Shown piece after piece: positions 13,892 through 47,454 of a stretch of DNA of 64,000 nucleotides. Each line of letters opens with the position of its first letter. The first letter of the stretch is position 1. The notes beneath the pieces were generated by a model, which was not told the origin of the DNA, made no database searches, and was given only the letters and a program-made list of their open reading frames with translations. The stretch spans positions 2,801,489 through 2,865,488 of the forward strand of contig OY970173.1 of assembly GCA_963707635.1 (NCBI GenBank), written 5' to 3'. The translations under genes and the position numbers were made by a program. Source of the stretch: Candidatus Latescibacterota bacterium. Its GTDB lineage: Bacteria; Krumholzibacteriota; Krumholzibacteriia; WVZY01; JAKEHA01.

Positions 13892-13899
13892 TCACTTGA

Positions 13900-15093: not shown

Positions 15094-15094
15094 C

Positions 15095-17952: not shown

Positions 17953-17975
17953 TTTCGATCCTCCCGGCACCGCGC

Positions 17976-19730
17976 CTACGGGTTGATCTCGAACCGCACA
18001 GACCGGAACGAGCCGATACCGTGATCGCTCTTGTAGACCGCCACACCGAAGATGAGCCCGGCGTCGAGGCGGTACGTATTCTGAGTCCACCCCTGGTACC
18101 CGGTCAGACGCCGTTCGCCATCGATCCACAGGTCGGCAGTCTTCAGCGCCGGGTCATAGATGATCTCGTATCGGTGATAGCCGCCAACGGGACTCTGCAT
18201 GAAGTCCATACCCCGAAACTCGGGAACGACCTGCGTGGGCAGGCGTACGATCTCCCGGTCGCCGTCCACAAATACCTGGACGGGAAATCCGAGGCCGCCA
18301 CCACCGAATTCGGCCGCCGCATAGGCCGCACCCGCTTCTGCCCTCAGCACGGCAGTCAGCTTCCAACCCCGATCCATCGCGCGCCGCGTCTCCGAGCTGG
18401 TGAAGGGATGGAAGTACAGCCCCCGACTGGGCGTCTCAAGGCGCCAGCCATCGTAGCCCGTGTGTGTCGGATTCTCGGTGACGCCAGTTCGCACCACTTC
18501 TTCGCGCACCTCGAAGCCCTCGGTGAGTGGGTCGAAGGCACCCACCTTCTCCACGATTCGGACCGGCTCCGCCCGGTCGCGCAGGATCGTCCTCTCGATG
18601 GCCGCTGCGGCGGCAAGGGCGATCGCCAACAGCGCGACGCCCACGGCGGCGCGGCGCACGCGCCGGCGCCCCGGCCCGAGCGTACCGGCCAGCGACTCGC
18701 TCCAGGCCTGAACGTCGGTGGGCCGCTCCTCCACCCGAAAAGCCAGCGCCGACTCCAGCGCCGCCCGGGTCTCGCGGCCCGTCGATGCGGGCAGCGCACG
18801 AACGTGCGGATACCCGCCGAGCATCTCACAGGCCACCAGCGCCATTGCATAGACATCGGAAGCGATCGAGTGTTTGCCTTCGAACTGCTCCGGCGCCATG
18901 TAGCGTACCGTTCCGGCGATCAGCACCGCCGTCGTTTCGGGTTCCAAATCCGAGCGGTCGATCTTAGCGATCCCGAAATCGATGAGTCGCACGATGTCAG
19001 CGCCGTCGTTGCGTGGCTGCAACATGATGTTCCCCGGCTTCAGGTCCCGGTGCGCAACGCCGGCGGTGTGCGCCGCGCCAAGGGCGCTCCCCATCTGCCG
19101 CAGGATTTCGGCCGCACGCGCTGGCGGAATGGGCCCCTGTGACAACAGCTCGCTCAGGCTCACGCCTGGAACGTACTGGATTACCAGAAAAGGCGAGCCG
19201 TCCTCGAGCTCGCCGACGTCCAAGATGCCCACGACCCCCGAATGATCGATTCGCGCGAGCGCATGCATCTCCTGCTCGAAGCGCGCTTTCAGCCAGTGGG
19301 ACCGGCGCCCTTCGACACGCATCACCTTGATCACGACCGGACGCATCGCCAGGTGCTGGTCATGCGCCAGGTAGACCAGCGCCTGCCCGCCCGTGGCGAG
19401 CTCCCGGTCGATGCGGTAGCGATTCCCCAACACCTGACCGCTGGTCAGACGTGCGGCGCTCGTCAGACCCTCCACGACCGATTGCCCGAGAGGTGACCAG
19501 GGAGGATCCTCGAGAAATCCGTCATCCGGCGTGTCCCCCGAAAGCAGTGCCTCCACCTCCGCCCGCAGCGCGCCGTCGCCTTCGCAGGCCAGGGTCAGGA
19601 ACGAATCTCGTTCGTCGCCGTCCAGCGCTCTCGCCGCCGTGAAGAGAGACGAGATCCGCTCCCACCGATCGTTCACGCCTGCGCTCAAGCCTTCAGCCTC
19701 GCATGGAGCCAGGACCGCGCAATGGCCCAA
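17976..19730 (-). CDS. Serine/threonine protein kinase with transmembrane segment and C-terminal extracytoplasmic domain
   Basis: Hanks-kinase motifs: ATGGQALVYLA...VVIKVM (ATP site), HRDLKPGNIML (catalytic loop), DFGIAK, APEQ. One TM helix (AAVGVALLAIALAAAAAI), then ~200 aa. Start uncertain: ATG at 19730 overlaps the sigma gene; TTG at 19688 or GTG at 19676 would couple to the sigma stop. Confidence 0.8.
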   Translation of the reverse strand: MGHCAVLAPCEAEGLSAGVNDRWERISSLFTAARALDGDERDSFLTLACEGDGALRAEVEALLSGDTPDDGFLEDPPWSPLGQSVVEGLTSAARLTSGQVLGNRYRIDRELATGGQALVYLAHDQHLAMRPVVIKVMRVEGRRSHWLKARFEQEMHALARIDHSGVVGILDVGELEDGSPFLVIQYVPGVSLSELLSQGPIPPARAAEILRQMGSALGAAHTAGVAHRDLKPGNIMLQPRNDGADIVRLIDFGIAKIDRSDLEPETTAVLIAGTVRYMAPEQFEGKHSIASDVYAMALVACEMLGGYPHVRALPASTGRETRAALESALAFRVEERPTDVQAWSESLAGTLGPGRRRVRRAAVGVALLAIALAAAAAIERTILRDRAEPVRIVEKVGAFDPLTEGFEVREEVVRTGVTENPTHTGYDGWRLETPSRGLYFHPFTSSETRRAMDRGWKLTAVLRAEAGAAYAAAEFGGGGLGFPVQVFVDGDREIVRLPTQVVPEFRGMDFMQSPVGGYHRYEIIYDPALKTADLWIDGERRLTGYQGWTQNTYRLDAGLIFGVAVYKSDHGIGSFRSVRFEINP

Positions 19731-20251
19731 TCCCGGTCCACGGTTCTGGGGTTCACTCCAAGAGCGCTCGCCACTTCGGGCACACTGAGTCCCGCAAAAT
19801 AGCGCAACTCCACGACACGAGCCTGGCGGGGTGAGAGCTTCTCGAGATCCGAGAGCGCTTCGTCCAGGTCCAGCAGCTCCACCGACTGCTCCTGACTGAG
19901 GCTCAAAGCGTGATCGAGCGAAAGCGCGGTTTGCTCACCCTCGCGCTTCTGTGCCTGCCGGTGGCGCGCGTGATCGATCAGGATCCTCCGCATGATGTTG
20001 GCGGCGGCGGCGTAGAAATGTGCCCGGTTCTCCCACGTGTGGTGTTCGTGGGCCACCAGCCGCATGTACGCCTCGTGCACCAGAGCGGTGGGCTGCAGAT
20101 CGCGACCGGGACGTTCGTGACGGAGCCGGGCTCGTGCCAGGTTTTTCAACTCGGGGTAGATCAGATCCATCAGTCGGGACGCGGCGGCGCCGTCACCCGG
20201 CCGAAACTCGCGCAGGAGAAGCGTCACCTGGGTGGCCCGTTCGCTGGTCAT
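19685..20251 (-). CDS. ECF-type RNA polymerase sigma-70 family factor
   Basis: Region 2-like (ALVHEAYMRLV...) and region 4 helix-turn-helix (RQARVVELRYFAGLSVPEVASALGVNPRTVDRDW). ATG at 20251 is preceded by GGGAGG; lies directly upstream of the kinase on the same strand. Confidence 0.75.
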   Translation of the reverse strand: MTSERATQVTLLLREFRPGDGAAASRLMDLIYPELKNLARARLRHERPGRDLQPTALVHEAYMRLVAHEHHTWENRAHFYAAAANIMRRILIDHARHRQAQKREGEQTALSLDHALSLSQEQSVELLDLDEALSDLEKLSPRQARVVELRYFAGLSVPEVASALGVNPRTVDRDWAIARSWLHARLKA

Positions 20252-20402
20252 TGCCTGCCTCCCGTTTTCTTTTGACCCCAACAAGATAGCACGCGACCCC
20301 GCAGGATGTCGCGATTGCCTCCGCTGTCACGCCATGAAGGGTCGAGGGGTGAAGTGAAACAGGCCAAGTTGTCCGAAATGGACGGAGTGGAAGGAGACAC
20401 AC

Positions 20403-21203
20403 ATGGATAAGTTCACAGTAGCGATTTTTCCGAACGAAGCCGCGGCCTATCAAGGGACACGCGTTTTCAAGGAACTGGACAAGGAACGCAGCCTGACGCT
20501 CTACGGCATGGCCGTGATCGCCAAGGACATGAATGGGAAAGTGACGATCAAGGAGGCCGCGGACCGGGGACCGCTGGGGACGGCGGTGGGCGGTCTGACG
20601 GGCGGACTGATCGGCCTGCTCGGCGGTCCAGTGGGAGCGGCGGTCGGGCTTGGAAGCGGTGCGCTGCTCGGGAGCCTGGTCGACCTTTCCAACCTCGGCG
20701 TGAGCACGAGCTTCGTGGACACCGTCCTGCAGGAAGTCACACCGGGCAAGGCCGCCGTCGTCGCCGAAATGGAGGAGGAATGGATCACGCCGCTCGACAC
20801 GCGGATGGAGGCCATCGGCGGCGTCGTGGTACGTGAGCCGCGGGCTGATTTCGAGTACCTGCAGTACCAGGAGGAAGTCGTGGCGCTGAAGGATGAGCTC
20901 GCGGAACTCAAGGCCGAATTCGCCCAGTCCAAGGACAAAAACCGCGCGAAGTTGAAAGCGCGGATTGACCAGACAGAGAAGAAGCTCGAGGGCGCCTCTG
21001 CCAGAGCCGAAGCATGGATGGATCGCCGCCGGGAGGAGACGGAAGCGAAGGTCAAGGCGCTGCAGGCCCGTGCCGAAAAGGCAAGTGCCGAGACGAAGGC
21101 AAGAAACCAGAAGCGCGCCGCGGAGATTCGAGCCGAAAGCGAGCGCCGGTCGGCCCTGATGCAGCAAGCATCGACGCTGGTGAAAGAGGCGCTCAGACAT
21201 TAG
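20403..21203 (+). CDS. DUF1269-like membrane protein with coiled-coil C-terminal region
   Basis: N-terminal MDKFTVAIFPNEAAAYQGTRVFKEL...LYGMAVIAKDMNGKV, a Gly-zipper segment (GTAVGGLTGGLIGLLGGPVGAAVGLGSGALLGSL), then a charged Lys/Glu/Ala-rich tail. Confidence 0.55.
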   Translation: MDKFTVAIFPNEAAAYQGTRVFKELDKERSLTLYGMAVIAKDMNGKVTIKEAADRGPLGTAVGGLTGGLIGLLGGPVGAAVGLGSGALLGSLVDLSNLGVSTSFVDTVLQEVTPGKAAVVAEMEEEWITPLDTRMEAIGGVVVREPRADFEYLQYQEEVVALKDELAELKAEFAQSKDKNRAKLKARIDQTEKKLEGASARAEAWMDRRREETEAKVKALQARAEKASAETKARNQKRAAEIRAESERRSALMQQASTLVKEALRH

Positions 21204-21306
21204 CCGCGCGCTCGCGGTCCTGACCGGTGTCAGGTCGCTGGTCGCACAAAGGATCGGGGCCGTTCATGGGAACGGCCCCGCATCCGACGAGAAACGGGGG
21301 TCAGTC

Positions 21307-22014
21307 ATGTTTCCGCTGCGGGACGATATTCCATCGCGCCGCCGACCGGTGGTCGTCTGGGCGCTCGTCCTTCTGAACGCCATCGTCTTCCTGTACGAGA
21401 TGCAGCTCTCCGAGGTCGAGCTAACGCAGTTCATCGAACGGTTCGCACTGACGCCGGCGGCGCTGACGGCTCCAAGCGGACTGCTCCACCACTGGACGAC
21501 GCTCTTCACTCACATGTTTCTGCATGGTGGCTGGCTTCACGTCATCGGCAACCTATGGTACCTGTGGATCTTCGGCGACAACGTCCTGGATCGCTTTGGC
21601 AGCGGGCGATTCCTGCTGCTCTATGTTGCGGGTGGGCTCGTGGCGGCTACGCTCCAGGTTTGTCTCAATCCCCAGATGCAGGCGCCGATGGTGGGCGCAA
21701 GCGGTGCGATTGCCGCCGTACTGGGTGCGTACCTCGTGCTCTATCCCAGGGCGCGCGTGATCACTTTCATTCCGATCTTTGTGTTCATCAAGCGGGTGAG
21801 TGTCCCGGCCGTCGTCTGGCTCGGGCTCTGGTTTGTAGAACAGTATCTCCTCGGAACGGGGTCTCGCTCCGATGCGACTGAAAGCGGAGGCGTCGCCTAC
21901 TGGGCGCACGTCGGTGGTTTTCTCTTCGGGATCCTGGCCGGAATCTGGACGCGCGCGCGGGAAGCTGCGGGGAGAGGGCCGGCGCACGGTATCCGGCCCG
22001 CCTTGATGTCGTGA
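21307..22014 (+). CDS. Rhomboid family intramembrane serine protease
   Basis: Catalytic Ser in GASGAIAAVLGAY and His in AHVGGFLFG, within multiple TM helices. Confidence 0.8.
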   Translation: MFPLRDDIPSRRRPVVVWALVLLNAIVFLYEMQLSEVELTQFIERFALTPAALTAPSGLLHHWTTLFTHMFLHGGWLHVIGNLWYLWIFGDNVLDRFGSGRFLLLYVAGGLVAATLQVCLNPQMQAPMVGASGAIAAVLGAYLVLYPRARVITFIPIFVFIKRVSVPAVVWLGLWFVEQYLLGTGSRSDATESGGVAYWAHVGGFLFGILAGIWTRAREAAGRGPAHGIRPALMS

Positions 22015-22108
22015 TCGTCGTCGGCGTTACGCCATAAATGTCGAAGGAAGAACAATCGTCGCCAGCCGGCGGAACCGTCGTCCGGCGACACAACCTGGGA
22101 GGTAGATC

Positions 22109-22825
22109 ATGGTGGAGATGCTGGCGCGCAACTGGGGATGGGTGCTGATGCGCGGGATCGCGGCGATACTGTTCGGCATGCTCACGCTCTGCAATCCGGG
22201 AATCGCACTGACGACGCTCGTCATGCTCTTTGGCGCCTACGCGCTCCTCGACGGCGTCTTTATAGCGGTGTCGGCGGTCGCGAACCGGAAGGGCCAGTCG
22301 CGCTGGGTGGCACTGCTGGTGGGCGGGATCCTGGGGATCGCGGTCGGCATCCAGACCTTCCTGATACCGAGCCTCACGGCGGCCGCTTTGGTAGCATTCA
22401 TCGCGATCTGGTCAATCATCATCGGCATCACCGAGATCGTGGCGGCAATCACGCTGCGCAAGGTGCTCTCGGGCGAATGGATGCTTATGCTCGCCGGCCT
22501 GGCGTCGGCCGCCTTCGGCGTATTCCTCATCGCGCGTCCGTCGCTGGGGGCCCTGGCAGTGGTGCTTTGGATCGGCGCCTCGGCGATGGTATCGGGGATC
22601 CTGCTTATCGCGCTGGCCTTCCGACTGCGCAGCTGGGGCCGCAGTCCGGCCATCGCGGCACTCACCGCGCGCGCAGCAGCGTGGCGTGCCGGCGTAGTGT
22701 ACAAACTCGCGAGCCCGCGGCCGCCACGGAGCGGCCGCGTCGCTTCCAGGCCGCGTGTGACGGCATTTCGCCGGCGGCCGCGAGGTTCATCGAGAGTCCC
22801 TCAGCACACGAAGGAGACTCATTGA
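22109..22825 (+). CDS. HdeD / DUF308-like membrane protein
   Basis: Repeated small-residue TM helices (GIAAILFGMLTL, LFGAYALLDGVFI, ...). The Arg-rich C-terminal ~60 aa look non-native; the stop may be displaced. Confidence 0.55.
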   Translation: MVEMLARNWGWVLMRGIAAILFGMLTLCNPGIALTTLVMLFGAYALLDGVFIAVSAVANRKGQSRWVALLVGGILGIAVGIQTFLIPSLTAAALVAFIAIWSIIIGITEIVAAITLRKVLSGEWMLMLAGLASAAFGVFLIARPSLGALAVVLWIGASAMVSGILLIALAFRLRSWGRSPAIAALTARAAAWRAGVVYKLASPRPPRSGRVASRPRVTAFRRRPRGSSRVPQHTKETH

Positions 22826-22847
22826 GTAGCTCAAAGGAGGAACAATC

Positions 22848-23345
22848 ATGTACGGATTCAAAGCGTTCGTGTTCAATGGCAAGAAGACGGCCAGCAAGGC
22901 TTACGATACTCTCGAAGAGCACATGCCGGTCTACCCGTGGATTGATGACGCCGCCGTGGTGTCGAAGAACAAGCTCGGCTTCACCCGGGTTTACAGCACC
23001 TGGGCGCAGGACGACACCGCGGTCGGCGTCGGAACCGGTCTCGGCGTAGTGACCGGTGCCCTGCTCGGAGCCATTCTGGGGCCCGGCGTCGCTGCGGCGG
23101 GAGCCGCGGTGGGTGGTTCAGTGGGCGCCGTGTCCGGCGCGGTCGGCGAAAGCGTCCTCAGCGACCCGCGCTTGGACGACTTTGCGGCGTCGCTCGCGAA
23201 GGACACCTCGGCGTTGATTCTGGTCGGCGAGAGAGCCTCGATCCTCGACTTCACCTCGGCGGTCGCGCCCTACGGTGGAAAGATCATCGAGACCAACCTC
23301 GACGAGAAGGACGTCAAGGCCCTGAGGAAGTCTCTCAAGAAGTAG
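22848..23345 (+). CDS. DUF1269-like membrane protein, second paralogue
   Basis: Same N-terminal pattern as 20403..21203 (MYGFKAFVFNGKKTASKAYDTLEEH...) plus a Gly/Ala zipper segment. Confidence 0.55.
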   Translation: MYGFKAFVFNGKKTASKAYDTLEEHMPVYPWIDDAAVVSKNKLGFTRVYSTWAQDDTAVGVGTGLGVVTGALLGAILGPGVAAAGAAVGGSVGAVSGAVGESVLSDPRLDDFAASLAKDTSALILVGERASILDFTSAVAPYGGKIIETNLDEKDVKALRKSLKK

Positions 23346-23488
23346 GGAGCCGTCGATCCCGATGCCCGGCGGGAGCGATCTGGGGGCGACGCGCCAACAC
23401 AAGGTTGGCCCGTCGCCCCTCTTTTTTCGCGTCGGCGCGGCCCATTTAGGACGCAGAGCGCTTCATCATGAGCAGCGATGCCACAAAG

Positions 23489-23533
23489 GGTTGGTGGAGG
23501 CGGCGGCGAGCGAAGCGAAGCTCAGAGCCGACC
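23489..23533 (-). repeat. Class II ssrA-3'-end-like 45-bp repeat, copy B2 (identical to 28973..29017)
   Basis: ggttggtggaggcggcggcgagcgaagcgaagctcagagccgacc read identically at both loci; the minus-sense 3' end ...CGCCGCCUCCACCA matches the ssrA acceptor end. Confidence 0.7.
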
Positions 23534-23563
23534 TCTGGCTTGTGTTCTACACAAACAGAGTTT

Positions 23564-23737
23564 GGTGGAGGAGGCGGGAATCGAACTCTGTCGATGGAGA
23601 AACTCTAACACGTTGATGGCGTGTGGTTTCGGATGCTACGAGTTGAAACATCGCCAGTTAGGTGACCGCTGCTTCTCCACTCCAGTCCTCTGCAGTCTTC
23701 TGGAATCGACCCACGTCATGGAGACATTTTGGAGACG
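23564..23737 (-). repeat. Class I ssrA-3'-end-derived repeat element, copy B (~175 bp)
   Basis: Core tggtggaggaggcgggaatcgaac has one mismatch to the ssrA 3' end; arm conserved with copies A and C up to ggagacattttggagacg; preceded by the small inverted repeat tgtgttctacacaaacagag. Confidence 0.7.
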
Positions 23738-23760
23738 CCACGCAGCGTTCGCTCGGGACG

Positions 23761-25245
23761 TTAGTGCTGCGTGGGCAGATCTGAGGAATGTAGCAGCTCC
23801 ACAACCAGCCGCTGCTCCTCGTTGCCTCCCTCGTCGTGCCACCGAACGCGCGTGATCTGGATGGACCGGTTCGTGATCCACAGCGGATCGGACACGGCCC
23901 ATTCGGAGCCATCGAGTAGGCACCACGAATCACCCGTCGCGGCGTCCGCAATCCACAGGTCGGCCGCAATGGTGTCGCCCACGTGGTGCAGCCGTGTCGG
24001 ACGCGAGAATGCAATCCACCGCCCATCCCGGCTCCAGGAGAATTCATGCGACGCGCCCACCTTCAGACTGTCGATAACCGTTACTCGGGCATCGGGAACG
24101 GTGACAGTGTAGAGAAGGGCTCCGCTCCACTTGCGGGAGATGCCGCTTACTGCGATGGTGCGTGAGTCCGGCGACCACTTCGATTCAGTCCCGTCGGTGA
24201 GGTCGCCTTCCATGACGATCTTGGACGCCGTCACGTCGACCACCGTCAATTGATAGGGATTCAGATGCGATTTCCAGACCACGCAGCTAAGGCAGCGGCC
24301 GTCCGGCGACCATTGAGGCAAGGACGCCGGCGTCTCTAGCAAACGGCGCGATTCTCCAGTCGCGACATCGACGATCTCCACGTAACCCCTGCGCGAAACA
24401 ATCACGACGCGTGCAACCAGAGAGTCCGGCCCAGGCACGTAGTTTCGGTCCGACGACGACCGGAGATAATCCGTTTTTGTTTCGAAGGGGACGTCGTCAG
24501 CCCACGGCTCTCGCAAAGCCACGACTTTCCACGGATTCACGGACGCGTGATTGCGGACTGCGCTGCACTTGACGGCAGTCAGGAGCAGACTTTCGTCGCC
24601 CGGCGCAAACTCTCCAACGGCGACATCGTCCAATCCGAAGCTCGCCCCGTTCTTCCCCACGACGCGGAAGCCAAACTGAACCTTCTTGCCGGCCCACGCC
24701 GACAGATCGACAAAACGTTCGCGGTAGATGAATGGATCCGCCGGTGACTCATTGCCAGTGATCGACCAGAGAGACGTCCAGCCTGTCGTACCCGCTTCAC
24801 GAATGTTGAGCGATCCATCGAGCACACTCGACCACTGCGTATTCCCGGACCAGGAAAACTTGATTGCCTTGTCGGTCGCTCCGAGCGCCACCACCGGCGT
24901 GATCAGCCACTCGTCGATAGCTCTCGGTGACTCGCTTCCGACATACGCCGCCGCGCTCCCGGTTCCAATGTTGTCGGGATCGGTGGTTCGGTGCCAGGCG
25001 TGCGGCAGAGGCAGGCCTGCGCTCTTCGTGCTCCAGCCCGGCGGCGGAAAGGTTGCGCCCTCGAATCCCTCCGCCAGTGTGGCTGGCGGTACACGTCCCG
25101 CCGGTACCGCCGACTGGGATCGTTGGGAAGCAGCCAACGGCGTGCATTCTGGTACTCCGTGGGCGTTGCCGACGATGAACGTGGGAACGCTGAGGAGAAG
25201 CCCGGCAATAAACGCCTTCATAAGGAGTGTCATGGGTCGCTTCAT
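23761..25245 (-). CDS. Secreted PD40 / TolB-like beta-propeller repeat protein
   Basis: Signal peptide (MKRPMTLLMKAFIAGLLLSVPTFIVGNAHG); repeated WSPDGR / WSPDSR / WSRDGR motifs. Start uncertain (ATG at 25296, 25245 or 25233). Confidence 0.6.
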   Translation of the reverse strand: MKRPMTLLMKAFIAGLLLSVPTFIVGNAHGVPECTPLAASQRSQSAVPAGRVPPATLAEGFEGATFPPPGWSTKSAGLPLPHAWHRTTDPDNIGTGSAAAYVGSESPRAIDEWLITPVVALGATDKAIKFSWSGNTQWSSVLDGSLNIREAGTTGWTSLWSITGNESPADPFIYRERFVDLSAWAGKKVQFGFRVVGKNGASFGLDDVAVGEFAPGDESLLLTAVKCSAVRNHASVNPWKVVALREPWADDVPFETKTDYLRSSSDRNYVPGPDSLVARVVIVSRRGYVEIVDVATGESRRLLETPASLPQWSPDGRCLSCVVWKSHLNPYQLTVVDVTASKIVMEGDLTDGTESKWSPDSRTIAVSGISRKWSGALLYTVTVPDARVTVIDSLKVGASHEFSWSRDGRWIAFSRPTRLHHVGDTIAADLWIADAATGDSWCLLDGSEWAVSDPLWITNRSIQITRVRWHDEGGNEEQRLVVELLHSSDLPTQH

Positions 25246-25544
25246 TGGATCATCGTGCGAGTGCGACAGGTCGCTGCATAACCTTCGCCATTTCACGACC
25301 AGAAGGGACCGCTGAAAGGTGCTGCAGAGGTGCGTTCAATGCAGAGTGTCCGCGGAGTAGTTAGCTAACGCGGCGATGCCACCCAAGCGACGACTAGATA
25401 CGAAGCGGCGGGAACTGCGGAAACGCGGATTTCGTCATGGAAACGGCGAGCGGCATAAGTTGTTCACGCTTCAGCGGTTGGTTACAATGGCACGCAAGTC
25501 GCGCTTCGCGCGAGCACTCATAACTCTATACGAATACACAAGAA

Positions 25545-25719
25545 ATGGTGGAGGCGGCGGGAATCGAACCCTGTTGCGAACGAAACATTAACCTGATGAT
25601 GGCGTGCGATTTCGGTTGTTGTGAGTTGAGAGATCGCAGGTTAGTTGACCGCCGCTTGTCCACTTCAGTCCTCTTGAGTCTACCGGACTCAACCCACGTC
25701 ATGGAGACATTTTGGAGAC
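25545..25719 (-). repeat. Class I ssrA-3'-end-derived repeat element, copy C (~175 bp)
   Basis: Core tggtggaggcggcgggaatcgaac identical to the ssrA 3' end; arm conserved with copies A and B; lies in the divergent region between the PD40 gene and the M36-like protease gene. Confidence 0.7.
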
Positions 25720-25914
25720 GGGTTTGACCTTCGCCCTTGTGCGGAGTTACTTTTATGGTGAATTGCCAGTCGGTTCTCGCCCGTCTCCGGGCAAAGATGT
25801 GGGCTTGAAAGTGTCCACCGTTCGGATTACGCTGCCTGCATTCCGGCCCGGTGATTTCATTCCGGAGACCTCCTTTCTTGCGGTTAACTCCAGGCGGCCA
25901 TCGGCCCAAGGAGC

Positions 25915-28836
25915 GTGACGCGCTTGCCAACTCCGCGCGATTTCATCCTGCACCGCAGTTTCTTCGCCATGCTCGTACTGGCGGTCCCGCTCTTCCCGGC
26001 GCTGCTCTCCGCGGCAGAGAACGCGACCTCGACGGCCGTTCCTGCTCCGGCCGCGCCCGTGCGCCATGCGCCGTCGATTGATCGCAACGCCATCCAGGCC
26101 GCCGTTCAGGAATTCCAGTCTTCCCAGTCACCCCGCTGGACGGTGTCGTGGGACCCGGTGAGCGGTCTCCCTCGAATGCTGACTGGCCAGACCACGCGCT
26201 CCTACGGGGCCACATCGGAAGCCGCCGCGCTGGCATTCGCTGGCGAGCATCGGATGCTTCTGGGCTTGATCGATGAGAAACACTCGGTGCGCCTGGTTGG
26301 AACGAAACTCATGCGCACCCAATGGCGCGTAACGCTGCAACAACAATTCGCCGGGATCGACGTCCTCGATGGGACGATTCAGGTGGTCGTGGACGGGAAA
26401 GGCCGCGTCCTATATGTGACAAACTCGGCGTGGCCGGTTTCCGCCGTCGATTTCTCGATCGATGTCGGTGAGAGCGCCGTACGCTCCTCGATCGCCCGGC
26501 GGTTCAGTGGCGAAGACGTCACCTACAATGACGGACCCCGCCGCGTGATCTACCCATCCGGGAATGGGCGGCTCGCGTATGTGGCGTACGTGCTCGCCGG
26601 CCCGCAGGGGCCGTGGCGCGTCCTCGTCGATGCGCGGACGGGCGGCATCCTGGAAGCGCGGCGGTTGGTGGTCGAGGAGAAGCAGGCCCCATCGCAGGAT
26701 GCCGCGACGCAGCAGAATCCGTCGCGCCCCGCGGACGTCGCCGACGTCAATGATCCGTGTGCCCGCGAGTGGAACGAGATGGGGGGAGCCGCGGTGATCG
26801 AGGTCCCGGATCCTGCAGACCCGTACTATGTCGACGTAAAGGTTGGCGTGCCCGGTCTCGGCGAGTTTCAACCGCAGGGGATCGGGACGTCCGCTGCGGG
26901 GATCAAACTCTTTCCGTGCATTTATTACACAATCCAGGTCGACTACAACGTGCACACCTGGGGTGGCTGGAATACTCCCAACGGCTTCCGTGATGTCTTC
27001 TTCGTCAACGTCAACAACATGAACTGGTACTGGAATCTCGGGCTCATTCCGCAGGCGCAGCTGTTCTGTACGACCGCCTACAACGACATGGGACTGATTC
27101 TCCCCGGCAAGGCCTGGGTCGCCGGCGGGAATCGATGCGGCGACGGCCTCTTGTGCGATCTGGTGGGATCGTTCCAGTTCGACATCATCGAACCGAACAA
27201 CACCAAAGAGCTCTATCTCTCGGTTGGGATGCAGCGGGTCTCAGTTTCGTGTCCGTCATGGGGGACCATCCGGGTCAAGATCATCGCGAAGTCCCGTGTC
27301 TTCGACCCCAACCCGGTGACCACGCTGAACCAGCCCTTCACGGACCAGGATGACGCCAACGAAGCCGTTCCCTGCGACGCGTACATCGGCGTCGACCTTC
27401 CGAATCTTACCCCGCCGCCGCCCGGGCAACCCTGGACTCTCACGGGCGACTATTGCGAGATCGTGGACATCACGGCCCCTGCCAAAACGTACACCTCGGC
27501 GCGCGACCCGAATTTCCCCTATCTGCGCCGGTGCGACATGTTCGAAGCGGTGAATGCCTACTACCACATCACGACCAACCAGCTCTACATCCAGTCTCTC
27601 GGTTTTACCGGCCTTTCCGGCATCAACAACCGCGCGCATCGCGTGGACCCGCATGGGATGGATCACGTGGACAACTCGCAATACGTCGGTAATCCCCCGG
27701 GACTTGGCTACATCGAGTTCGGCGAGGCCTTTGTCGACGACGCCGAAGACGCCGACGTGATCCTCCACGAGTACGGCCACTCGATTCAGGACAACCAGAC
27801 ATTCGGCTATTACCTCGGGACTGGCGCAGGCAACGGCTTCGGCAACGAGACGTGGGCGATGGGCGAGGGGTTCGCCGACTACTGGGCGTGCAGCAACTTT
27901 GCCGACGAGAGTACCGCGAGCGGCTTCGACCCCGCCGCGTACGGCGAGTGGAACAAACAGAACATGACCGGGACCCGCAGGGTCGACAAGAACAAGATCT
28001 ATCCGACGAATATGGAAAGCGAAGAACACGCCGACGGAGAGATCTGGTCGCGCACGCTGTGGGACCTCTTTCAGGCAGTCGGGAAGACGACCTCTGACGT
28101 GCTCATACTGGAGAGTCACTATCTCGTTCCTTCACGTCCATTGTTCAGCGACGGCGCCAAGGCGTTGATTGCAGCGGACGCAGTTGCCAACGCGGGCGCC
28201 AACAAGAATACGATTGTCGCCATCTACGTCGATCGCGGCATCTTCCGTAGTCTCGCCGTTGCATCGTCGCCCATCAACGGCGTGCCGATCACCGTGTCGA
28301 GGCAGGACGTACGTGGCGATCAAAGTGATGCCACCGACTTCAACCGGACGTATGCGTGGGGGGACTCGGTATCGCTCGACGCACCGCCCTCGTTTGGCGA
28401 CCGTACTTTCACGCGCTGGGATGTGGACGGCGTCGCGGGTGCGAACGGCGACTTGACCGCCGTCGTGCGCATGGACGAATCGCCACCATTTCACTCGGCC
28501 ATCGCTTACTACGATACTCTCCCTGGCGACCCCGGCACGCCCGTCCGTGACATCCCGAAAGCCCTGGCGCTGCTTCAGAATCACCCGAACCCGTTCAACC
28601 CGACGACGACGATCACGTTCACGTTGCCGAGGGAGATGGAGATCGAGCTTTCGGTGTTCGACGTGGCGGGCCGGCGGGTGGCCACACTCCGGAGCGGACG
28701 CGAACGGGCAGGCGTCTATGCCGTGGTGTGGGATGGACGGAGCGCGGCCGGTGAGACGGTGAGCTCGGGCGTGTACATCTACCGGTTGCGAGCGGGCCAA
28801 ACGGTTCTGACGAGGAAGATGACACTACTCAAGTAG
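25915..28836 (+). CDS. Secreted zinc metalloprotease, fungalysin/thermolysin-like (M36/M4-like), with T9SS-type C-terminal sorting domain
   Basis: HExxH site VILHEYGHSIQ with a downstream Glu motif GEGFADYWA, resembling fungalysin HEYTHG...EGWSD. C-terminus LLQNHPNPFNPTTTITF...VFDVAGRRVATL...WDGRSAAGETVSSGVYIYRL...RKMTLLK. GTG start at 25915 (ATG alternative 25969). Confidence 0.65.
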   Translation: MTRLPTPRDFILHRSFFAMLVLAVPLFPALLSAAENATSTAVPAPAAPVRHAPSIDRNAIQAAVQEFQSSQSPRWTVSWDPVSGLPRMLTGQTTRSYGATSEAAALAFAGEHRMLLGLIDEKHSVRLVGTKLMRTQWRVTLQQQFAGIDVLDGTIQVVVDGKGRVLYVTNSAWPVSAVDFSIDVGESAVRSSIARRFSGEDVTYNDGPRRVIYPSGNGRLAYVAYVLAGPQGPWRVLVDARTGGILEARRLVVEEKQAPSQDAATQQNPSRPADVADVNDPCAREWNEMGGAAVIEVPDPADPYYVDVKVGVPGLGEFQPQGIGTSAAGIKLFPCIYYTIQVDYNVHTWGGWNTPNGFRDVFFVNVNNMNWYWNLGLIPQAQLFCTTAYNDMGLILPGKAWVAGGNRCGDGLLCDLVGSFQFDIIEPNNTKELYLSVGMQRVSVSCPSWGTIRVKIIAKSRVFDPNPVTTLNQPFTDQDDANEAVPCDAYIGVDLPNLTPPPPGQPWTLTGDYCEIVDITAPAKTYTSARDPNFPYLRRCDMFEAVNAYYHITTNQLYIQSLGFTGLSGINNRAHRVDPHGMDHVDNSQYVGNPPGLGYIEFGEAFVDDAEDADVILHEYGHSIQDNQTFGYYLGTGAGNGFGNETWAMGEGFADYWACSNFADESTASGFDPAAYGEWNKQNMTGTRRVDKNKIYPTNMESEEHADGEIWSRTLWDLFQAVGKTTSDVLILESHYLVPSRPLFSDGAKALIAADAVANAGANKNTIVAIYVDRGIFRSLAVASSPINGVPITVSRQDVRGDQSDATDFNRTYAWGDSVSLDAPPSFGDRTFTRWDVDGVAGANGDLTAVVRMDESPPFHSAIAYYDTLPGDPGTPVRDIPKALALLQNHPNPFNPTTTITFTLPREMEIELSVFDVAGRRVATLRSGRERAGVYAVVWDGRSAAGETVSSGVYIYRLRAGQTVLTRKMTLLK

Positions 28837-28900
28837 TCCGCGTCTGATCGAAGCGGCGCACAGAGCCAACGCATGGTCCTCGTTCGACGAGAACAGGGTT

Positions 28901-28936
28901 TGGCGGAGGCAGCGGCTGGCGCGGAACGCGCTGCTC
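28901..28936 (-). repeat. Degenerate tRNA-3'-end-like fragment (E3) next to ssrA
   Basis: Minus-sense GAGCAGCGCGUUCCGCGCCAGCCGCUGCCUCCGCCA: T-arm-like hairpin plus a CCUCCGCCA end resembling the ssrA acceptor end. Confidence 0.3.
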
Positions 28937-28972
28937 AAAGCCCACCTCAGGTTTGTGTCTTACACAAACAGA

Positions 28973-29017
28973 GGTTGGTGGAGGCGGCGGCGAGCGAAGC
29001 GAAGCTCAGAGCCGACC
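28973..29017 (-). repeat. Class II ssrA-3'-end-like 45-bp repeat, copy E2 (identical to 23489..23533)
   Basis: Same 45-mer as B2; lies 28 bp from the ssrA 3' end; preceded by the inverted repeat tttgtgtcttacacaaacagag. Confidence 0.7.
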
Positions 29018-29044
29018 GGAGGCTTACTGTTAGTAAGCATGGGT

Positions 29045-29416
29045 TGGTGGAGGCGGCGGGAATCGAACCCGCGTCCGAAGAAGCAGCCGCAACGGTTACT
29101 ACGTGTGTAGTCCGTGGTGATTTCTCATCTCCGTACCCACCGCGGACGAAAGTGTAACGGAGACCAGCCCGGTAGTTTCTCGCGCCTCAGCCCCAGACAT
29201 AGCCTCGGCGCCAGCCCCCAGAGTATGACGCCCACTCACCGGCCCTGGAGACCCAGCCGGTGGGGACGGGAGCCTAAGCTAGCTTAGCTAGTTAGGCAGC
29301 CAGTGCGACGTTGTTGTCAGCACTTGAATTGGTGCCACCTGGTTTTACGAGGCTTGTGACCTGGCTCGACACGCAACCGGTACGCCCATCTTCCCCGTCG
29401 AGACCTGTTCGCCCCC
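29045..29416 (-). ncRNA. ssrA: tmRNA (transfer-messenger RNA, SsrA), standard one-piece form
   Basis: Minus-sense 5' end GGGGGCGAACAGGUCUCGACGGGG resembles the tmRNA 5' consensus. 3' end GCGGGUUCGAUUCCCGCCGCCUCCACCA is a perfect T-arm, 7-bp acceptor stem pairing with the 5' end (G3:U70, discriminator A) and encoded CCA. Internal tag reading frame ...GCU GAC AAC AAC GUC GCA CUG GCU GCC UAA encodes ...ADNNVALAA-stop. Confidence 0.9.
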
Positions 29417-30469: not shown

Positions 30470-32859
30470 CTACTTCAGCAATAGCATCTTACGTGCGAGC
30501 GTCGCTCCGCTCGCGTTGAGACGGTAAAAGTAGATCCCGCTTCCCACGCGCCGGCCTTCATTATCGACACCGTCCCATTCCGCGACATAGGTCCCGGCAC
30601 GGCGATGCGTGTCGAGTAGCGAACGGACGAGGGCGCCTCGCGCGTCGTAAATACGCAGCGAGACCGGGCCGTCGCGTTCCACGCCGTAAGAAATCCTGGT
30701 GGTGGGATTGAACGGATTGGGGACGTTCTGATCCAGGTGGGTGCGAGCCGGCGTTGTGCCGGCGCCCGTCACCGCGCCCGGCGTGAGCAGCCGCAAAGGC
30801 GCTCTCGTTGTCGTGCAAATCGAACGCGCTGACCTTGTAGTAGTAGCCGCTCGAGGGTGTCCACGCGGGATCGAGGAACGACTCCGACGCCGGCGTTGCG
30901 ATGCGATTACCCGCATCCGGGACAAAGCCCGCCGTGCTTCCCCGATACACGCCGTAATTCGCGAGATCGTGCTCGTCGTTTGGCTGCCACGACATCGAGA
31001 GTCCGGCAGGAGAATGTGATTGTGCACCCGCGAGATTCTGAGGCGCGGCCGGGGCAAGGTTATCGACCGAGTATCCGCTGTCTGGCGCGCTGTCGTAATA
31101 CACCGACGGCGTCGTGGTCTGCGCCATTACGAAGTACACGTTGTACGGAGTGACCGCAACCGTCTGGTCAGCCTGCGTAGGTGCGAGCACGATGTAGTCG
31201 CTCGACTGCTGCCGCGCGGGAGCGCTCGCGACCGATTCCCACAACGCTGCTGTGGACACCGCATCCAGCGAGGGCTCGCGCCAGATCCGGTGACCTTCCC
31301 ATTCGATAGCGCTCGACTTCCCTACCACGCCCTCGCTTTGGATCTGCGCAACGAGAGCTGCATTATCGATGCGCCGAAACACGTAGTACGTGAGCACACC
31401 CGGCGAAGCACTCGCGATGTCCTCTCCCGATCCCTGGAAGTAGACACGCACCCAGCCACCCTGATCTCCGGGCACATCGACGATGTTGTGAATCTCCGGC
31501 TTCTGGCGGCTGAATCGGGCGATGAAGATATCCTGGCCCGATGCTGTGAGATTGCTTCCCCCAAAATTGGTCGTACCGTTGACGTAGCCGGTCATGACGA
31601 CATTGTTCGCCGGGTCGGTGACGACCCGGTTGGCATGCTGATCAGACGCGTCACCGTACGTCGCGTTGAACAGAAGATTCCCGTCGTTGTCGAATCGAAC
31701 GAGAAAAATGTCGGTGCCACCGGCACTGGTGAGGGCTCCGGTTCCAAAATCCACGCTGCCCGCGTAGTAACCCGACCACGCCACCGCACCGCCGGCATCC
31801 ACCGCGGGCCCATTGGCGTTTTGCGCGCCGGCATCCCCGAAGCGTCTTGCTCCAGACATGATTGCCCGCGGCATCCAGCCTGGCGATGCAGATGTCGTTG
31901 CCACCTGCCGACGTCAGCCCGCCGCCGCCGAAATCCACCGTCCCCTGGAATGTTCCCGTGACGAAGACGTTACCCGCCGGATCGAATCCGATTCCATTTC
32001 CGATCTGGCTGCTGGCATCCCCGAAGCGCTTGCTCCACACGTGCACGCCCGCGCTCGTGAACCGCGCAACAAAGATGTCGTTGCTTCCTCCGCTGGTAAT
32101 GGTGCCACCACCGAAGTCGGCGCTGCCCGCCATGTTCCCCGCAATTCCAACGTCTCCGTCCGCACTAACTGCCACCCCGATCCCATTCTGGCCCCCAGTC
32201 GCTCCGAAGCGTTTGCTCCACAGATGATTTCCGGCGGGATCGAACTTCACCAGGAATATGTCGGCGCCGCCCCCGCTCGTGAGCGGCCCCCCACCGAAGT
32301 CCACGGTTCCATTCATCAATCCGGTCATGTAGATGTTGCCGCTGCCGTCGGTGGCGATGCCGTTTGGAATCTGGTCGGTCGCGTCGCCAAATTGCTTGCT
32401 CCACTGATGCGCGCCGGCGGAGTTGAATTTACCGACAAAAATGTCGGTCAAGCCGGCGGAACTGAGGGTCGAACCTCCCAGGTTCACGGATCCTGACACT
32501 TGCCCGGCCAGAACGACGTTGCCGGAAGGGTCACAGGCCAGTGCGGTGCCGTATTCGGACATTGTCGTGCTTTGGAAAAAGCCCACGCTGTAGAGATGGG
32601 TCCCGCCAGCGTTGAATTTGGCGAGATACGGTGCATCGTCCGTGCTTCCGACCGTGAAGTCCCCCCCGCCAAAATTGACCGTCCCCCGAAACATGCCCGT
32701 GATCCATACGTTGCCGCTCGGATCCACGGCAATTCCGCGGCCGTCCTGTGTGTTGACATCGCCAAAGATCTTGCTCCAGCTATGCTGGAGAGCCGGGGCA
32801 GCCTCGAGACGGACGGAATTGAGGAGAAGAAGCGAGAGGACGACGGGACGGATTCGCAT
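30470..32859 (-). pseudogene. Secreted beta-propeller (SBBP-like) repeat protein with fibronectin-III-like region and T9SS-type C-terminal domain; reading frame broken twice
   Basis: Three track ORFs (31651..32895, 30561..31904, 30470..31057) are consecutive parts of one protein: signal peptide MRIRPVVLSLLLLNSVRLEAAPA, ~8 repeats of the D-x-x-G-N-x-x-x-T-G...FGGG type, a YSVDNLAPAAP segment, and C-terminus ...NVPNPFNPTTRISY...IYDARGALVRSL...WDGVDNEGRRVGSGIYFYRL...RKMLLLK. Frame switches near 31845 and near 30790. Confidence 0.65.
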
Positions 32860-33112
32860 GGGAGGCGCCCTTTCTGCACAGGTGGTCTTGTGCAATACGG
32901 GCGCCTCAAAGAGTCGCCAACGACGCCCGAGAGGGATTAACTATATCACAGATACGCGCAGGTTGGCACTGCAGCTGCGGGCACCGTCAAGTCAATGGTG
33001 AAGAAGAAAGGCCACCGCCGGGCAGCCAGCCGGGCCCGCCGGTGGTGTGATAGAATGCGCACGCCAGCGCATGCCGCATTCCCACGACAGGTGATCCCAA
33101 AGGCCGTGACCC

Positions 33113-34255: not shown

Positions 34256-34354
34256 GCACCTCCCAAAAAACTCGTGACGGATCCTGCCCCGGCACGTCTA
34301 ACCGGGAAACGGGCTCCATGCCCGAAAGCCAGCCACCGAACCGGAGGGCCTCCC

Positions 34355-35359
34355 ATGTTTCGACGTCTCGTGCTCCTGACCGTGCTGACCCTGATTGCCG
34401 GCTTCCGCCCGGCACAGGCCGACATCACGACGGGCCTCATCGCCCGCTACCCGTTTGACGGCAACGCCAACGATATCAGTGGAAACAACAATCACGGCTC
34501 GTTGGTGGGTGCGGTGGCGTCCACCACCGATCGTTTCGGGTTGCCCGACCGGGCCTATGCGTTCAACGGCCTGAATACCTATGTGCTGGTCCCTGCCTCG
34601 GCCAGCCTGAACTCGCCGACCACGGCTTGCACGCAGGCGGGATGGACGCTGCAATCCGGAGTGAGTAGTGTGGGATCGGGCTTCAATCCGCTCCTCATGA
34701 AGAGCAATAGCGGTGAGAATGCGTTCATGTACCGGATGATCACGAACCCCACCTACGTGGGCGCCGCATTCAACAACTGGAACACCGCCCAGAGCGCCGG
34801 GCAGGCGACACCGCTCAACGAGTGGCACCACTTCGCGACCGTGTTCAACGGCGCTACCGTCAGGTACTACTACGACGGCGCGTACATCGGGTCGCAGCCG
34901 ATGGTGATGACGATCACCCCGGACAACCGCCCGCTCACCATTGGCGCCGATGTGCCCGGTATTCTCGAGATCTTCAACGGCAAGATCGACGATGTGTCCA
35001 TCTACAGTCGTGCACTCACCGACGAGGACATCGTCGAGCTCTACAATCAGGCGACGCCGACTGCCGTGTCCCAATCGACGCCGCCGTTTTCGCTGGGCTA
35101 CAGCGTTCCCAATCCCAGCGGCGGCGAAAGCAGCGTGGAGTTCACCCTCGACTCGGAGCAGTTCGTCCAGCTCGACGTGTTCGATGTGGCCGGGCGCCGC
35201 GTGCGCGTCATGGAATCCGGAGTTCGTTCGGCCGGAGTCCATCGCGCGACGTGGGATGGGCGCCGGGACAACGGGAGCCATACGCCGTCGGGCGTCTATT
35301 TCTTTCGTCTCCACAGTGGAAACCACGTGCTGACGAGCCGAATCGTTCGGGTGCGGTAG
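34355..35359 (+). CDS. Secreted LamG / concanavalin-A-like lectin domain protein with T9SS-type C-terminal sorting domain
   Basis: Signal peptide (MFRRLVLLTVLTLIAGFRPAQA); LamG-like block (DGNANDISGNNNHGSLVG...WHHFATVFNG...GKIDDVSIYSRALTDEDI); C-terminus ...VPNPSGGESSVEF...VFDVAGRRVRVM...WDGRRDNGSHTPSGVYFFRL...SRIVRVR. Confidence 0.7.
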   Translation: MFRRLVLLTVLTLIAGFRPAQADITTGLIARYPFDGNANDISGNNNHGSLVGAVASTTDRFGLPDRAYAFNGLNTYVLVPASASLNSPTTACTQAGWTLQSGVSSVGSGFNPLLMKSNSGENAFMYRMITNPTYVGAAFNNWNTAQSAGQATPLNEWHHFATVFNGATVRYYYDGAYIGSQPMVMTITPDNRPLTIGADVPGILEIFNGKIDDVSIYSRALTDEDIVELYNQATPTAVSQSTPPFSLGYSVPNPSGGESSVEFTLDSEQFVQLDVFDVAGRRVRVMESGVRSAGVHRATWDGRRDNGSHTPSGVYFFRLHSGNHVLTSRIVRVR

Positions 35360-47451: not shown

Positions 47452-47454
47452 AGT

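Follow-up and report, generated by a model that had tools for sequence, protein, structure and literature searches.

Why should two 45-nt sequences be identical when the comparable repeats around them have diverged, and what do they say about the 5.4-kb block that they bracket? The initial annotation of this locus read the pair as the mark of a recent duplication or of recombination sites around a candidate excisable or recently acquired unit. In the window, by which we mean the whole 64-kb stretch of DNA analysed, we find that the integration target is the 3′ end of ssrA, the tmRNA gene, and that the 45-mers derive from it. We propose, with a probability of roughly 80%, that they are units at the outer junctions of two decayed, integrase-less islets that accreted in tandem at the ssrA 3′ end.

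The 45-mers are pseudo-3′ ends of ssrA

Bearing out the initial annotation, the 45-mer occurs exactly twice in the window, at 23489–23533 and 28973–29017, both times on the plus strand. No further copy was found in the 64 kb with up to three mismatches allowed, and the chance expectation from 100 shuffles is 0 matches. Nor does the sequence recur within the window as a dispersed repeat away from ssrA, as both copies are ssrA-linked. On the minus strand the 45-mer ends in CGCCGCCTCCACCAACC, which is the last 14 nt of ssrA plus 3 nt downstream. It is a degenerate pseudo-3′ end of ssrA (a ‘U’ unit), copied from the last ~45 nt of the gene, and no free-standing repeat. An intact target gene, full-length ssrA, stands at one boundary of the island; it encodes the tag peptide ADNNVALAA and has a promoter-like TTGTCC-17-TATCAT at 29473–29445. 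In this clade, each ssrA-type end, including that of the ~175-nt repeats termed class I, is followed by a 27–30-nt hairpin and then a U unit. Read leftwards from ssrA, these elements are:

29045–29416, minus strand: intact ssrA (ARAGORN; Rfam RF00023, 180.6 bits, full length)
29018–29044, minus strand: hairpin H0, immediately downstream of the ssrA CCA (fold −9.1 kcal/mol, z −3.5)
28973–29017, minus strand: U1, the right 45-mer, in which CGCCGCCTCCACCAACC comes after a mini hairpin whose loop is of TTCG type; pseudo-3′ end of ssrA
28945–28972, minus strand: hairpin H1, TGTGT type (fold −15.8 kcal/mol)
28901–28944, minus strand: U2, a second, diverged pseudo-3′-end unit (88% identity with the U unit that trails class I in locus L007, 73% with U1)
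28852–28900, minus strand: hairpin H2 (28875–28900; fold −9.0 kcal/mol) and truncated U3 (28852–28874), abutting the end of the M36 cassette
25440–25545, minus strand: degenerate hairpin and U-like remnant downstream of core C, ending ...CCAACC (from alignment)
23534–23562, minus strand: hairpin H1′, TGTGT type, after core B (fold −13.2 kcal/mol)
23489–23533, minus strand: U1′, the left 45-mer, identical to U1

The core–hairpin–U module follows eight ssrA-type ends in the window and in loci L007, L049 and L005, and also follows ssrA in L057. Because a hairpin and a U unit trail each ssrA-type end, both 45-mers are parts of att-type junctions of ~100 nt. The left junction (23489–23588) and the right junction (28973–29072) align in register through U (45/45), hairpin and ssrA core, a parallel longer than the 45-mer itself, and their hairpins have the same length but unlike sequences. 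The initial annotation had placed a small TGTGT...ACACA inverted repeat beside each 45-mer; one does adjoin each copy, but on opposite sides: the left copy has it on its right, and the right copy on its left. The position equivalent to the TGTGT hairpin of the left copy is occupied, beside the right 45-mer, by H0, whose sequence is unrelated. H0 is at most 45% identical to the other hairpins and has no relative in any locus that we fetched, making it unique to this genome among those. H1 matches L057 (1137–1164) at 27/28 positions, its orthologue there being the hairpin directly after ssrA; H1′ shares 90% identity with the hairpins that trail L007 ssrA and L005 class I; and H2 agrees at 23/27 positions with those that trail class I in L007 and L049. 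Relative to L057, which reads ssrA–H1–U2-like, H0 and U1 constitute a 72-nt insertion. The U-like assignment at 25440–25545 is weak because this segment is only 35–47% identical to other U units.

The perfect match suggests a recent event

U1 and U1′ match over exactly 45 nt, and the flanking bases differ on either side; a 46th shared base was discarded as an alignment artefact. Other pairs of U units are 35–88% identical, so that the identity of this pair is exceptional, and the description of a perfect match amid diverged repeats stands. At 80% per-site identity, the chance of a full match would be 0.8^46, or ~3.5 × 10^−5. At the equivalent position in L049, where a U unit trails the class I scar closest to the DUF1269 flank, that unit shares 74% identity with U1′, versus 91% for the flank; U is therefore not kept constant by selection, and a 45/45 match implies recency. 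The perfect match of U1 and U1′ suggests that the U sequence took part in a recent event. Possibilities include donation of U twice by the same element lineage, short-tract conversion, and insertion of a composite block through U1. A recent duplication is not supported as far as genes are concerned, as the att-type junction alone is repeated. One aspect of the identity counts against tandem accretion: simple layering predicts that U1, which is ssrA-adjacent and newest, and U1′, the most distal unit, should be the most divergent, yet they are identical.

The identity could be secondary if diverged units had been homogenised by short-tract gene conversion, with the tract limited to 45 nt because a non-homologous hairpin lies at one border and unique DNA at the other, and the repeats would then be uninformative about when the block arrived. 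Junction homology does break exactly at the U borders (H0 and H1′ are 45% identical, and the spacer is unique), and core B carries two mismatches whereas the adjoining U1′ carries none. Nevertheless, tracts of 45 bp that lie 5.4 kb apart should rarely undergo conversion, and there is no independent sign of it, such as mosaic tracts; the class I copies of the window remain ~81% identical. We consider conversion quite unlikely.

Class I repeats are predicted attP arms

Three class I copies lie in the window:

25546–25719, minus strand: copy C, an attR-type scar composed of a ~150-nt conserved P arm and the last 24 nt of ssrA (T loop to CCA)
23563–23736, minus strand: copy B, a scar with 2 mismatches to ssrA in its 26-nt core
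12932–13105, minus strand: copy A, a third scar in the same orientation, 10.6 kb beyond the block

Distal direct repeats of the ssrA 3′ segment thus span 24–26 nt at 25546, 23563 and 12932, and 14–17 nt inside both 45-mers. The start of class I is sharp, with an invariant GTCTCC-N5-GTCTCC, and its end is the host’s own ssrA-type 3′ end. Between these limits lie phased GGAC motifs, ~10–11 nt apart, and an IHF-consensus-like ATCAnCnnGTTAG, which resembles the IHF consensus, WATCAANNNNTTR. Exact conservation of a 22-nt arm motif, GTCTCCAAAATGTCTCCATGAC, extends from this group to Vicinamibacterales. We found class I in 14 GTDB genomes spanning several phyla (species representatives, with the window’s own genome not among them), and MAGs that carry it include Acidobacteriota, Eisenbacteria, Latescibacteria and Krumholzibacteriia. 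An integrase or its remnant lies directly beside the core in three loci: in L006, a PF00589 tyrosine integrase abuts the core, with its C terminus ending 18 nt away, and L007 and L010 have integrase remnants at the same position. From these features, class I is a DNA site, predicted to be the P arm of the attP of ssrA-targeting tyrosine-integrase elements. Neither the class I motif nor the 45-mer core has an exact match in IMG/VR, phage and plasmid collections have no similarity to U1′–H1′–class I, and nothing points to an origin from a phage or plasmid.

The hairpin–U units and class I might instead be functional RNAs (3′ trailers, tRNA-like-end decoys or small RNAs), with the identity of the 45-mers maintained by purifying selection. 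Hairpin structure is indeed kept while sequence changes, and in most U units a mini hairpin whose loop is TTC(G) precedes ...CCACCA, a layout like that of a T arm plus acceptor strand. Several results make this reading very improbable. First, we rejected class I as a structured RNA, as 18 copies have no consensus structure or covariation (RNAalifold, −4.95 kcal/mol, with a compensatory change in 1 of 13 predicted pairs). Second, what is conserved in class I, namely phased hexamers in direct and inverted orientation plus an IHF-like site, is typical of protein-binding DNA. Third, Rfam finds nothing in the window beyond ssrA except sub-threshold fragments, and no U run follows any of the hairpins. 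Finally, the divergence of the flank-nearest U unit between close relatives, given above, exceeds that of their flanks.

The block consists of two single-gene islets

The cargo and the left flank are arranged as follows:

25782–28851, plus strand: M36 cassette, a gene with its own promoter region (CDS from 25915 or 25969 to 28836)
23761–25245 or 25296, minus strand: PD40/choice-of-anchor J gene, cargo of the distal islet (Pfam PD40, NCBIfam NF038128)
23435–23488, no strand: 54-nt unique spacer between U1′ and the conserved flank, with no match in any fetched locus
23383–23419, plus strand: DUF1269 terminator hairpin and T run, the last conserved left-flank element, kept in L049, L050 and L053
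22848–23345: DUF1269 gene of the left flank

The content that the initial annotation had assigned to the block (class I copies B and C, the PD40 gene and the M36 protease gene) is confirmed. The block is two single-gene islets split by an internal ssrA-end scar, each ending in a class I repeat; because of this internal scar and the two class I arms, it is a composite, not a single element. The M36 gene product is a T9SS-dependent, M36-like metalloprotease with a T9SS C-terminal domain (Pfam PF02128, FlgD_ig and Por_Secre_tail; NCBIfam), for which only 10 homologues were found at E ≤ 1e-30. The cassette has 78% nucleotide homology to its own closest relative, L054, over exactly 25782–28851, and the context in L054 is not ssrA. 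The recorded M36 product has 970 aa and the starts tried here give 973 and 955 aa, so the annotated start differs from ours; exact-protein look-ups of PD40 and M36 with guessed starts returned no match. The PD40 protein has a signal-peptide-like N terminus and is predicted to be secreted. With the class I-adjacent cargo in L049 and L004 it has only a 159-aa domain in common, and we rejected the PD40 gene as a positional orthologue of the class I neighbour in L049, with which it shares the choice-of-anchor J domain alone. The ssrA pseudo-3′-end nature of the 45-mers, the ~100-nt junction, the composite block and the third class I scar had been missed in the initial annotation.

The block belongs to the accessory DNA of a recombination hotspot, at a position well known for taking up foreign DNA, in keeping with the description ‘acquired’. 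The DUF1269 flank is 87–92% identical at the nucleotide level in four relatives (L007, L049, L050 and L053); in all four, conservation ends at window positions ~23384–23434 and different genes lie beyond. The locus is thus polymorphic for presence of the block, and these relatives carry other cargo between the DUF1269 flank and ssrA. GC content (0.56–0.66 for the block, 0.62–0.68 for the left flank) is too similar to date acquisition. A metagenome scan with the DUF1269 protein yielded 34 loci (54–96% identity by best segment), which are silent on presence or absence of the block because ssrA is not downstream of DUF1269 there.

Could the repeats be an assembly artefact, in which a short repeat caused two strain variants to be joined or duplicated? 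The source contig is metagenome-assembled and 3.2 Mb long, and a short-read contig from another sample, ERR15459715, with an identical DUF1269 protein, breaks off within the left 45-mer, ~178 nt downstream of the gene. A genuine repeat, however, produces just such a short-read break, and 45 bp is too short to mislead long-contig assembly. Moreover, class I–core–hairpin–U arrangements, tandem scars and single-gene islets recur in independent assemblies from other projects. An artefact is extremely improbable.

A model of tandem accretion at ssrA

We propose that the attP of these tyrosine-integrase elements would consist of the ~150-nt class I arm and a copy of the ssrA T-loop-to-CCA segment, and that the elements would recombine with the T loop of ssrA. 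Each integration would restore ssrA, and the old 3′ end would be displaced, together with its hairpin and U unit, to the distal edge of the incoming island. Integrase genes would have been lost later, leaving the cargo (the M36 protease and the anchor-J/PD40 protein) between scars. No integrase, serine recombinase, transposase or PF00589 domain was found among the ORFs of the 64-kb window, and neither tblastn nor motif searches detected an integrase remnant there; because the integrase gene is absent, the window holds decayed islands, not an intact element. Two further features fit accretion poorly. None of the tandem U–hairpin units keeps interior DNA, which is odd for ordinary island scars. 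In addition, FtsH, a Ser/Thr kinase, an ECF sigma factor and a rhomboid protease are encoded in the interval from copy A to copy B of class I. As island cargo these would be unusual, and they hint at rearrangement or at insertions of great age.

Alternatively, the 45-mers might be the functional attL and attR of one 5.4-kb mobile unit, integrated through U1 and still excisable to leave one 45-mer. Before insertion the locus would have read ssrA–H0–U1–spacer–DUF1269, and a circular composite would have been inserted by a U-recognising recombinase or by RecA acting on 45 bp. The perfect identity and its abrupt stop at either end are as expected, U contains a small GC-rich inverted repeat like core-type sites, and the predicted empty site is a tidy ssrA–hairpin–U–flank, as in relatives. 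But the window has no recombinase, no empty-site variant was seen, and the supposed unit is composite, with one ssrA-end scar in its interior and class I arms in two copies. Furthermore, L057, which shares the right flank, has the order ssrA–H1–U2-like found inside the supposed insert, which in-place layering fits better. A single mobile unit is rather unlikely. Under tandem accretion, present-day loss of the block through the 45-mer pair could occur only by an integrase acting in trans, as for CIMEs, or by rare homologous deletion.

Discussion

This locus shows the gain and exchange of secreted and T9SS proteins in poorly known soil phyla (NCBI labels Eisenbacteria, Latescibacteria and Krumholzibacteriia) through a tmRNA-gene hotspot served by a widespread family of tyrosine-integrase elements. 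The motif GTCTCCAAAATGTCTCCATGAC is a practical marker for such islands in MAGs. The class of mechanism is already well described, and what is new here is mainly the element family and its host range.

A more speculative and distinctly doubtful extension is that the 72-nt hairpin–U segment is an insertional unit or secondary att site, that the U1 pair are live attL and attR of a cis-mobilizable 5.4-kb composite, and that ssrA is an integron-like platform. If so, ssrA in these soil lineages of the FCB group and Acidobacteriota would be a platform on which single genes for secreted proteins, each carrying a 175-nt class I repeat as its tag, are shuffled by a trans-acting tyrosine integrase. Integron arrays comprise an intI integrase, an attI site and promoterless cassettes, each followed by an imperfectly palindromic attC. 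Here there is no integrase, the repeats are ssrA-derived with a 150-nt arm rather than attC-like, and the M36 cassette has its own upstream region, unlike promoterless cassettes.

A sublocation scheme for tyrosine-integrase islands that target tRNA and tmRNA genes was reportedly set out by Williams in NAR in 2002 and J Bacteriol in 2003. Our loci share with that scheme the identity block from T loop to CCA, regeneration of the gene by the element, the displaced 3′ fragment as the far end and, in L006 and L007, an integrase gene adjoining the gene-proximal junction. They differ in that the window has no integrase and that an extra clade-specific hairpin and pseudo-3′ end follow every core.

A close parallel in layout is Dehalococcoides, whose tandem ssrA islands are delimited by direct repeats of the gene’s 3′ end; 15 of the islands there lack integration modules, and CIME formation and accretion have been discussed (McMurdie et al. 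2011, PMC3146451). In both cases, several islands are stacked downstream of a single tmRNA gene, each bounded by ssrA or its 3′-end repeat; insertion is inferred in the T-loop region; extra conserved nucleotides lie beside the repeat; many islands lack an integration module and are discussed as cis-mobilizable or fixed remnants; and content varies by strain. In contrast, the Dehalococcoides enzyme is a large serine recombinase, DsiB, within a six-gene module, whereas the enzyme linked here is a tyrosine recombinase (PF00589). The ~150-nt conserved arm with arm-type and IHF-like motifs also sets our islands apart, as do the direct repeat (20 bp in Dehalococcoides, 24 nt plus a hairpin–U extension here) and the cargo (reductive dehalogenases there, T9SS/secreted proteins in single-gene islets here).

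CIMEs and their accretion scenario (Pavlovic 2004; Bellanger 2011; reviewed in PMC5704250) are comparable in outline, being decayed elements with attL and attR, lacking integration genes, in tandem at the end of a target gene and potentially mobilised in cis by a related integrase. The window retains repeats but no integration genes, and core B has two mismatches; our islets have no conjugation or transfer genes and would be putative CIMEs. Prochlorococcus tycheposon islands also adjoin tRNA/tmRNA genes, with newer integrations pushing older ones outward and with partial tRNA genes and fragmented integrases scattered throughout (Hackl et al., bioRxiv 10.1101/2020.12.28.424599); our locus has no tycheposon hallmark genes and differs in host phyla and att arm. 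The feature that this known class of islands accounts for least is the iterated pseudo-3′-end/hairpin module with its two identical copies.

Two islets between ssrA ends

The 5.4-kb block beside the tmRNA gene ssrA is composed of two single-gene islets, one carrying an M36-like metalloprotease gene and the other a PD40/choice-of-anchor-J gene, split by an internal ssrA-end scar. The initial annotation reported identical 45-mers in the same orientation at the ends of this block, and this was borne out: the window contains exactly two copies of GGTTGGTGGAGGCGGCGGCGAGCGAAGCGAAGCTCAGAGCCGACC (23489–23533 and 28973–29017, both plus strand), identity between the copies spans exactly 45 nt, and allowing up to three mismatches gave no further match in the window and none in 100 shuffles. 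The content listed between them (two class I repeats, the PD40 gene and the M36-like gene) is all present. The right copy lies 27 nt from the intact ssrA (29045–29416, minus strand). Read on the minus strand (GGTCGGCTCTGAGCTTCGCTTCGCTCGCCGCCGCCTCCACCAACC), the 45-mer contains a GC-rich mini hairpin with a TTCG-type loop, followed by 17 final nucleotides that correspond to the last 14 nt of ssrA and the next 3 nt. The 45-mer is a degenerate ssrA pseudo-3′-end, which we name U (U1, right copy; U1′, left copy).

Junction features and class I repeats, from ssrA leftwards; both ends read on the minus strand
29018–29044, hairpin H0, 3′ of ssrA
28973–29017, U1
28945–28972, hairpin H1
28901–28944, U2
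28875–28900, hairpin H2
28852–28874, truncated U3, then the M36 cassette end
25546–25719, class I copy C, ~175 nt
23563–23736, class I copy B, ~175 nt, terminating at the left end of the block in an ssrA-type core (23563–23588)
23534–23562, hairpin H1′
23489–23533, U1′, then a unique 54-nt spacer and the DUF1269 gene terminator
12932–13105, class I copy A, ~175 nt, a third scar 10.6 kb beyond the block

The left and right ends align in register over ~100 nt (identical U, hairpin, ssrA 3′ segment), which makes the direct repeat one segment of a longer att-type junction. The hairpins at the equivalent position, H0 and H1′, are equal in length and unrelated in sequence. The TGTGT hairpins described beside the 45-mers are real, but the left and right copies have theirs on opposite sides, as expected from the tandem-array register.

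The M36-like gene (plus strand, with a T9SS sorting domain) is rare, having 10 homologues at E ≤ 1e-30. Its closest relative, in L054 (a locus from another genome), is 78% identical at the nucleotide level over exactly 25782–28851, a span covering the gene and the region upstream of it; that counterpart occupies an ordinary chromosomal context without any scar. In the window, the cassette is flanked directly by class I copy C and truncated U3. The anchor-J/PD40 gene is encoded on the minus strand. The 64-kb window has no gene for an integrase, transposase or other recombinase. The block is not a gene duplication, contrary to the earlier suggestion of a recent duplication. A 159-aa choice-of-anchor J domain (67–69% identity) is common to class I-adjacent cargo of three genomes (window 23761–25245; L049 3771–5165; L004 5581–7677) that otherwise differs in architecture (PD40 region, T9SS tail, or amidase plus T9SS tail), and domain shuffling among island cargo is suggested.

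Class I repeats as putative attachment sites

The three class I copies are ~80% identical to one another and overlap ssrA only in its final 24–26 nt, from T loop to CCA. The 22-nt motif at their far end, GTCTCCAAAATGTCTCCATGAC, has exact matches in 14 GTDB genomes labelled Vicinamibacterales or Acidobacteriota, Eisenbacteria, Latescibacteria and Krumholzibacteriia, and none in IMG/VR. Across an 18-copy alignment (A3), conservation starts abruptly at an invariant GTCTCC-N5-GTCTCC and continues with GGAC motifs about one helical turn apart and a ATCAnCnnGTTAG block, which resembles the IHF consensus. The same 18 copies yield no consensus RNA structure, and covariation is almost nil. Class I terminates with the 3′ end of whichever ssrA-type gene its host carries; in L001–L003 this end differs. 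In L006, a PF00589 tyrosine recombinase gene that converges on the core stops 18 nt away from it, and remnants of an L006-type recombinase occupy the same position in L007 and L010. The conservation pattern, missing RNA structure and integrase linkage argue that class I is the P arm plus core of the attP of ssrA-targeting tyrosine-integrase elements, and each window copy would be an attR-type scar.

The L007 remnant (5797–5943) adjoins ssrA; its alignment to the L006 integrase is now limited to the C-terminal ~49 residues, and the catalytic tyrosine is replaced (...TTTQRRMHL... versus ...TTTQRYMHL... in L006). In A3, the core after the 22-nt motif tracks each host's own ssrA-type 3′ end (L001–L014). 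Class I arms look like the mark of a broad-host integrative element family, of which we found no published description.

Turnover at the ssrA locus

Relatives of the window locus, with nucleotide identities to the window
L007 (MAG MFD02242.bin.1.209): DUF308–DUF1269 genes 87%, ssrA 92%; beyond, ArsR/AHSA1-type genes, one class I scar, a TMEM260-like glycosyltransferase and the integrase remnant
L049: flank 91%; beyond, 2.2 kb of other genes, followed by U-hairpin-class I and a different anchor-J protein
L050: flank 92%; beyond, lipase, deacetylase, class I, kinase, class I
L053: flank 87%; no scars within 10 kb

Similarity to the window ends at ~23429–23434, directly past the DUF1269 terminator, in L049, L050 and L053, and earlier, at ~23384, in L007. 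The ssrA locus is a hotspot with turnover. The earlier reading of the block as an excisable or recently acquired unit is partly supported: the block was acquired and is hotspot-borne, given the differing inserts past the shared flank in relatives, but its excisability stays a hypothesis.

Between class I copies A and B (13160–23345) lie genes for a polysaccharide deacetylase, an FtsH-type protease, a Ser/Thr kinase, an ECF sigma factor, a rhomboid protease, DUF308 and DUF1269. L050 lacks the rhomboid and DUF308 genes, and its kinase/sigma block runs the opposite way relative to DUF1269. This content and order indicate that the region is a large, old island or that the surroundings of the hotspot have been rearranged.

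The tRNA-Lys(CTT) locus (47455–47529, minus strand) is of the same islet-and-scar pattern as ssrA. Two partial 3′ copies (~60 and ~45 nt), each with a similar downstream hairpin, bracket single genes encoding a T9SS repeat protein (44130–46682) and a 150-aa protein of unknown function (46939–47391); no integrase is present at these islets.

Regions of the tRNA-Lys pattern
44014–44106
46734–46812
47422–47529

C-terminal FlgD_ig/Por_Secre_tail domains (T9SS type) are unusually dense in window positions 1–47400 (genes at 6–2897, 9764–12553, 25915–28836, 34274–35359 and 44130–46682), and the second, third and fifth of these genes directly adjoin tRNA or tmRNA scars. Long in-frame tandem repeats occur in two secreted-protein genes: 162–168-nt units (6–8 copies, 44384–45596) in the T9SS gene at 44130–46682, and ~183-nt units (31810–32785) in an SBBP beta-propeller gene (31651–32895). 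An ORF at 12554–12905 with a signal-peptide-like start (MLARPLVAWILLAIASTVSA...) begins 27 nt past the CCA of class I copy A; the M6 peptidase gene annotated at 9764–12553 may have its real N terminus there.

Why U1 equals U1′

A hairpin and U follow every ssrA-type end in the clade (U-hairpin alignment A4; also L057). In L049 the DUF1269 flank is 91% identical, yet the U that follows the flank-nearest class I scar matches U1′ at 74%, and all U pairs other than U1–U1′ are 35–88% identical. U is not kept by selection, so the 45/45 identity of U1 and U1′ indicates something recent. L057 has the right flank and ssrA in common with the window (89% nucleotide identity) and the order ssrA–H1–U2-like, its H1 matching window H1 at 27 of 28 positions. 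Between ssrA and H1 the window thus carries an extra 72 nt, H0 plus U1, as a lineage-specific insertion; it is bounded by a 17-nt repeat, CGCCGCCTCCACCAACC, and none of the fetched loci contains a relative of H0.

The newest, ssrA-proximal U is thus identical to the most distal one, which adjoins a core with two mismatches. There are three candidate explanations. First, one element lineage could have left its arm twice. Second, the copies could have become identical by short-tract conversion, with the heterologous hairpin and the spacer setting its limits. Finally, the composite block could have integrated through U1, as the initial annotation envisaged. No interior DNA is retained inside the U-hairpin units of any locus; candidate origins of these units are fully decayed insertions and local duplication of the ssrA terminus. 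At L005 (3461–3555), a class I arm is cut short after 44 nt and joined to the 3′ half of an H1-type hairpin. Next comes a U1-like unit that is 31/31 identical to the window 45-mer up to the point where it stops; the U1 sequence is therefore also in circulation in a Krumholzibacteriia-labelled MAG.

Comparison with known systems

Both islets probably accreted at ssrA, with their integrases lost afterwards. Dehalococcoides carries tandem ssrA islands, some without integration modules, which have been discussed as cis-mobilizable or fixed (PMC3146451), and these match the window's accreted, integrase-less islets. The block likewise fits the accretion/CIME scenario (PMC5704250) and agrees with the remnants pushed outward in Prochlorococcus islands (bioRxiv 10.1101/2020.12.28.424599). 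The type of mechanism is already known, and the window is a further example of it.
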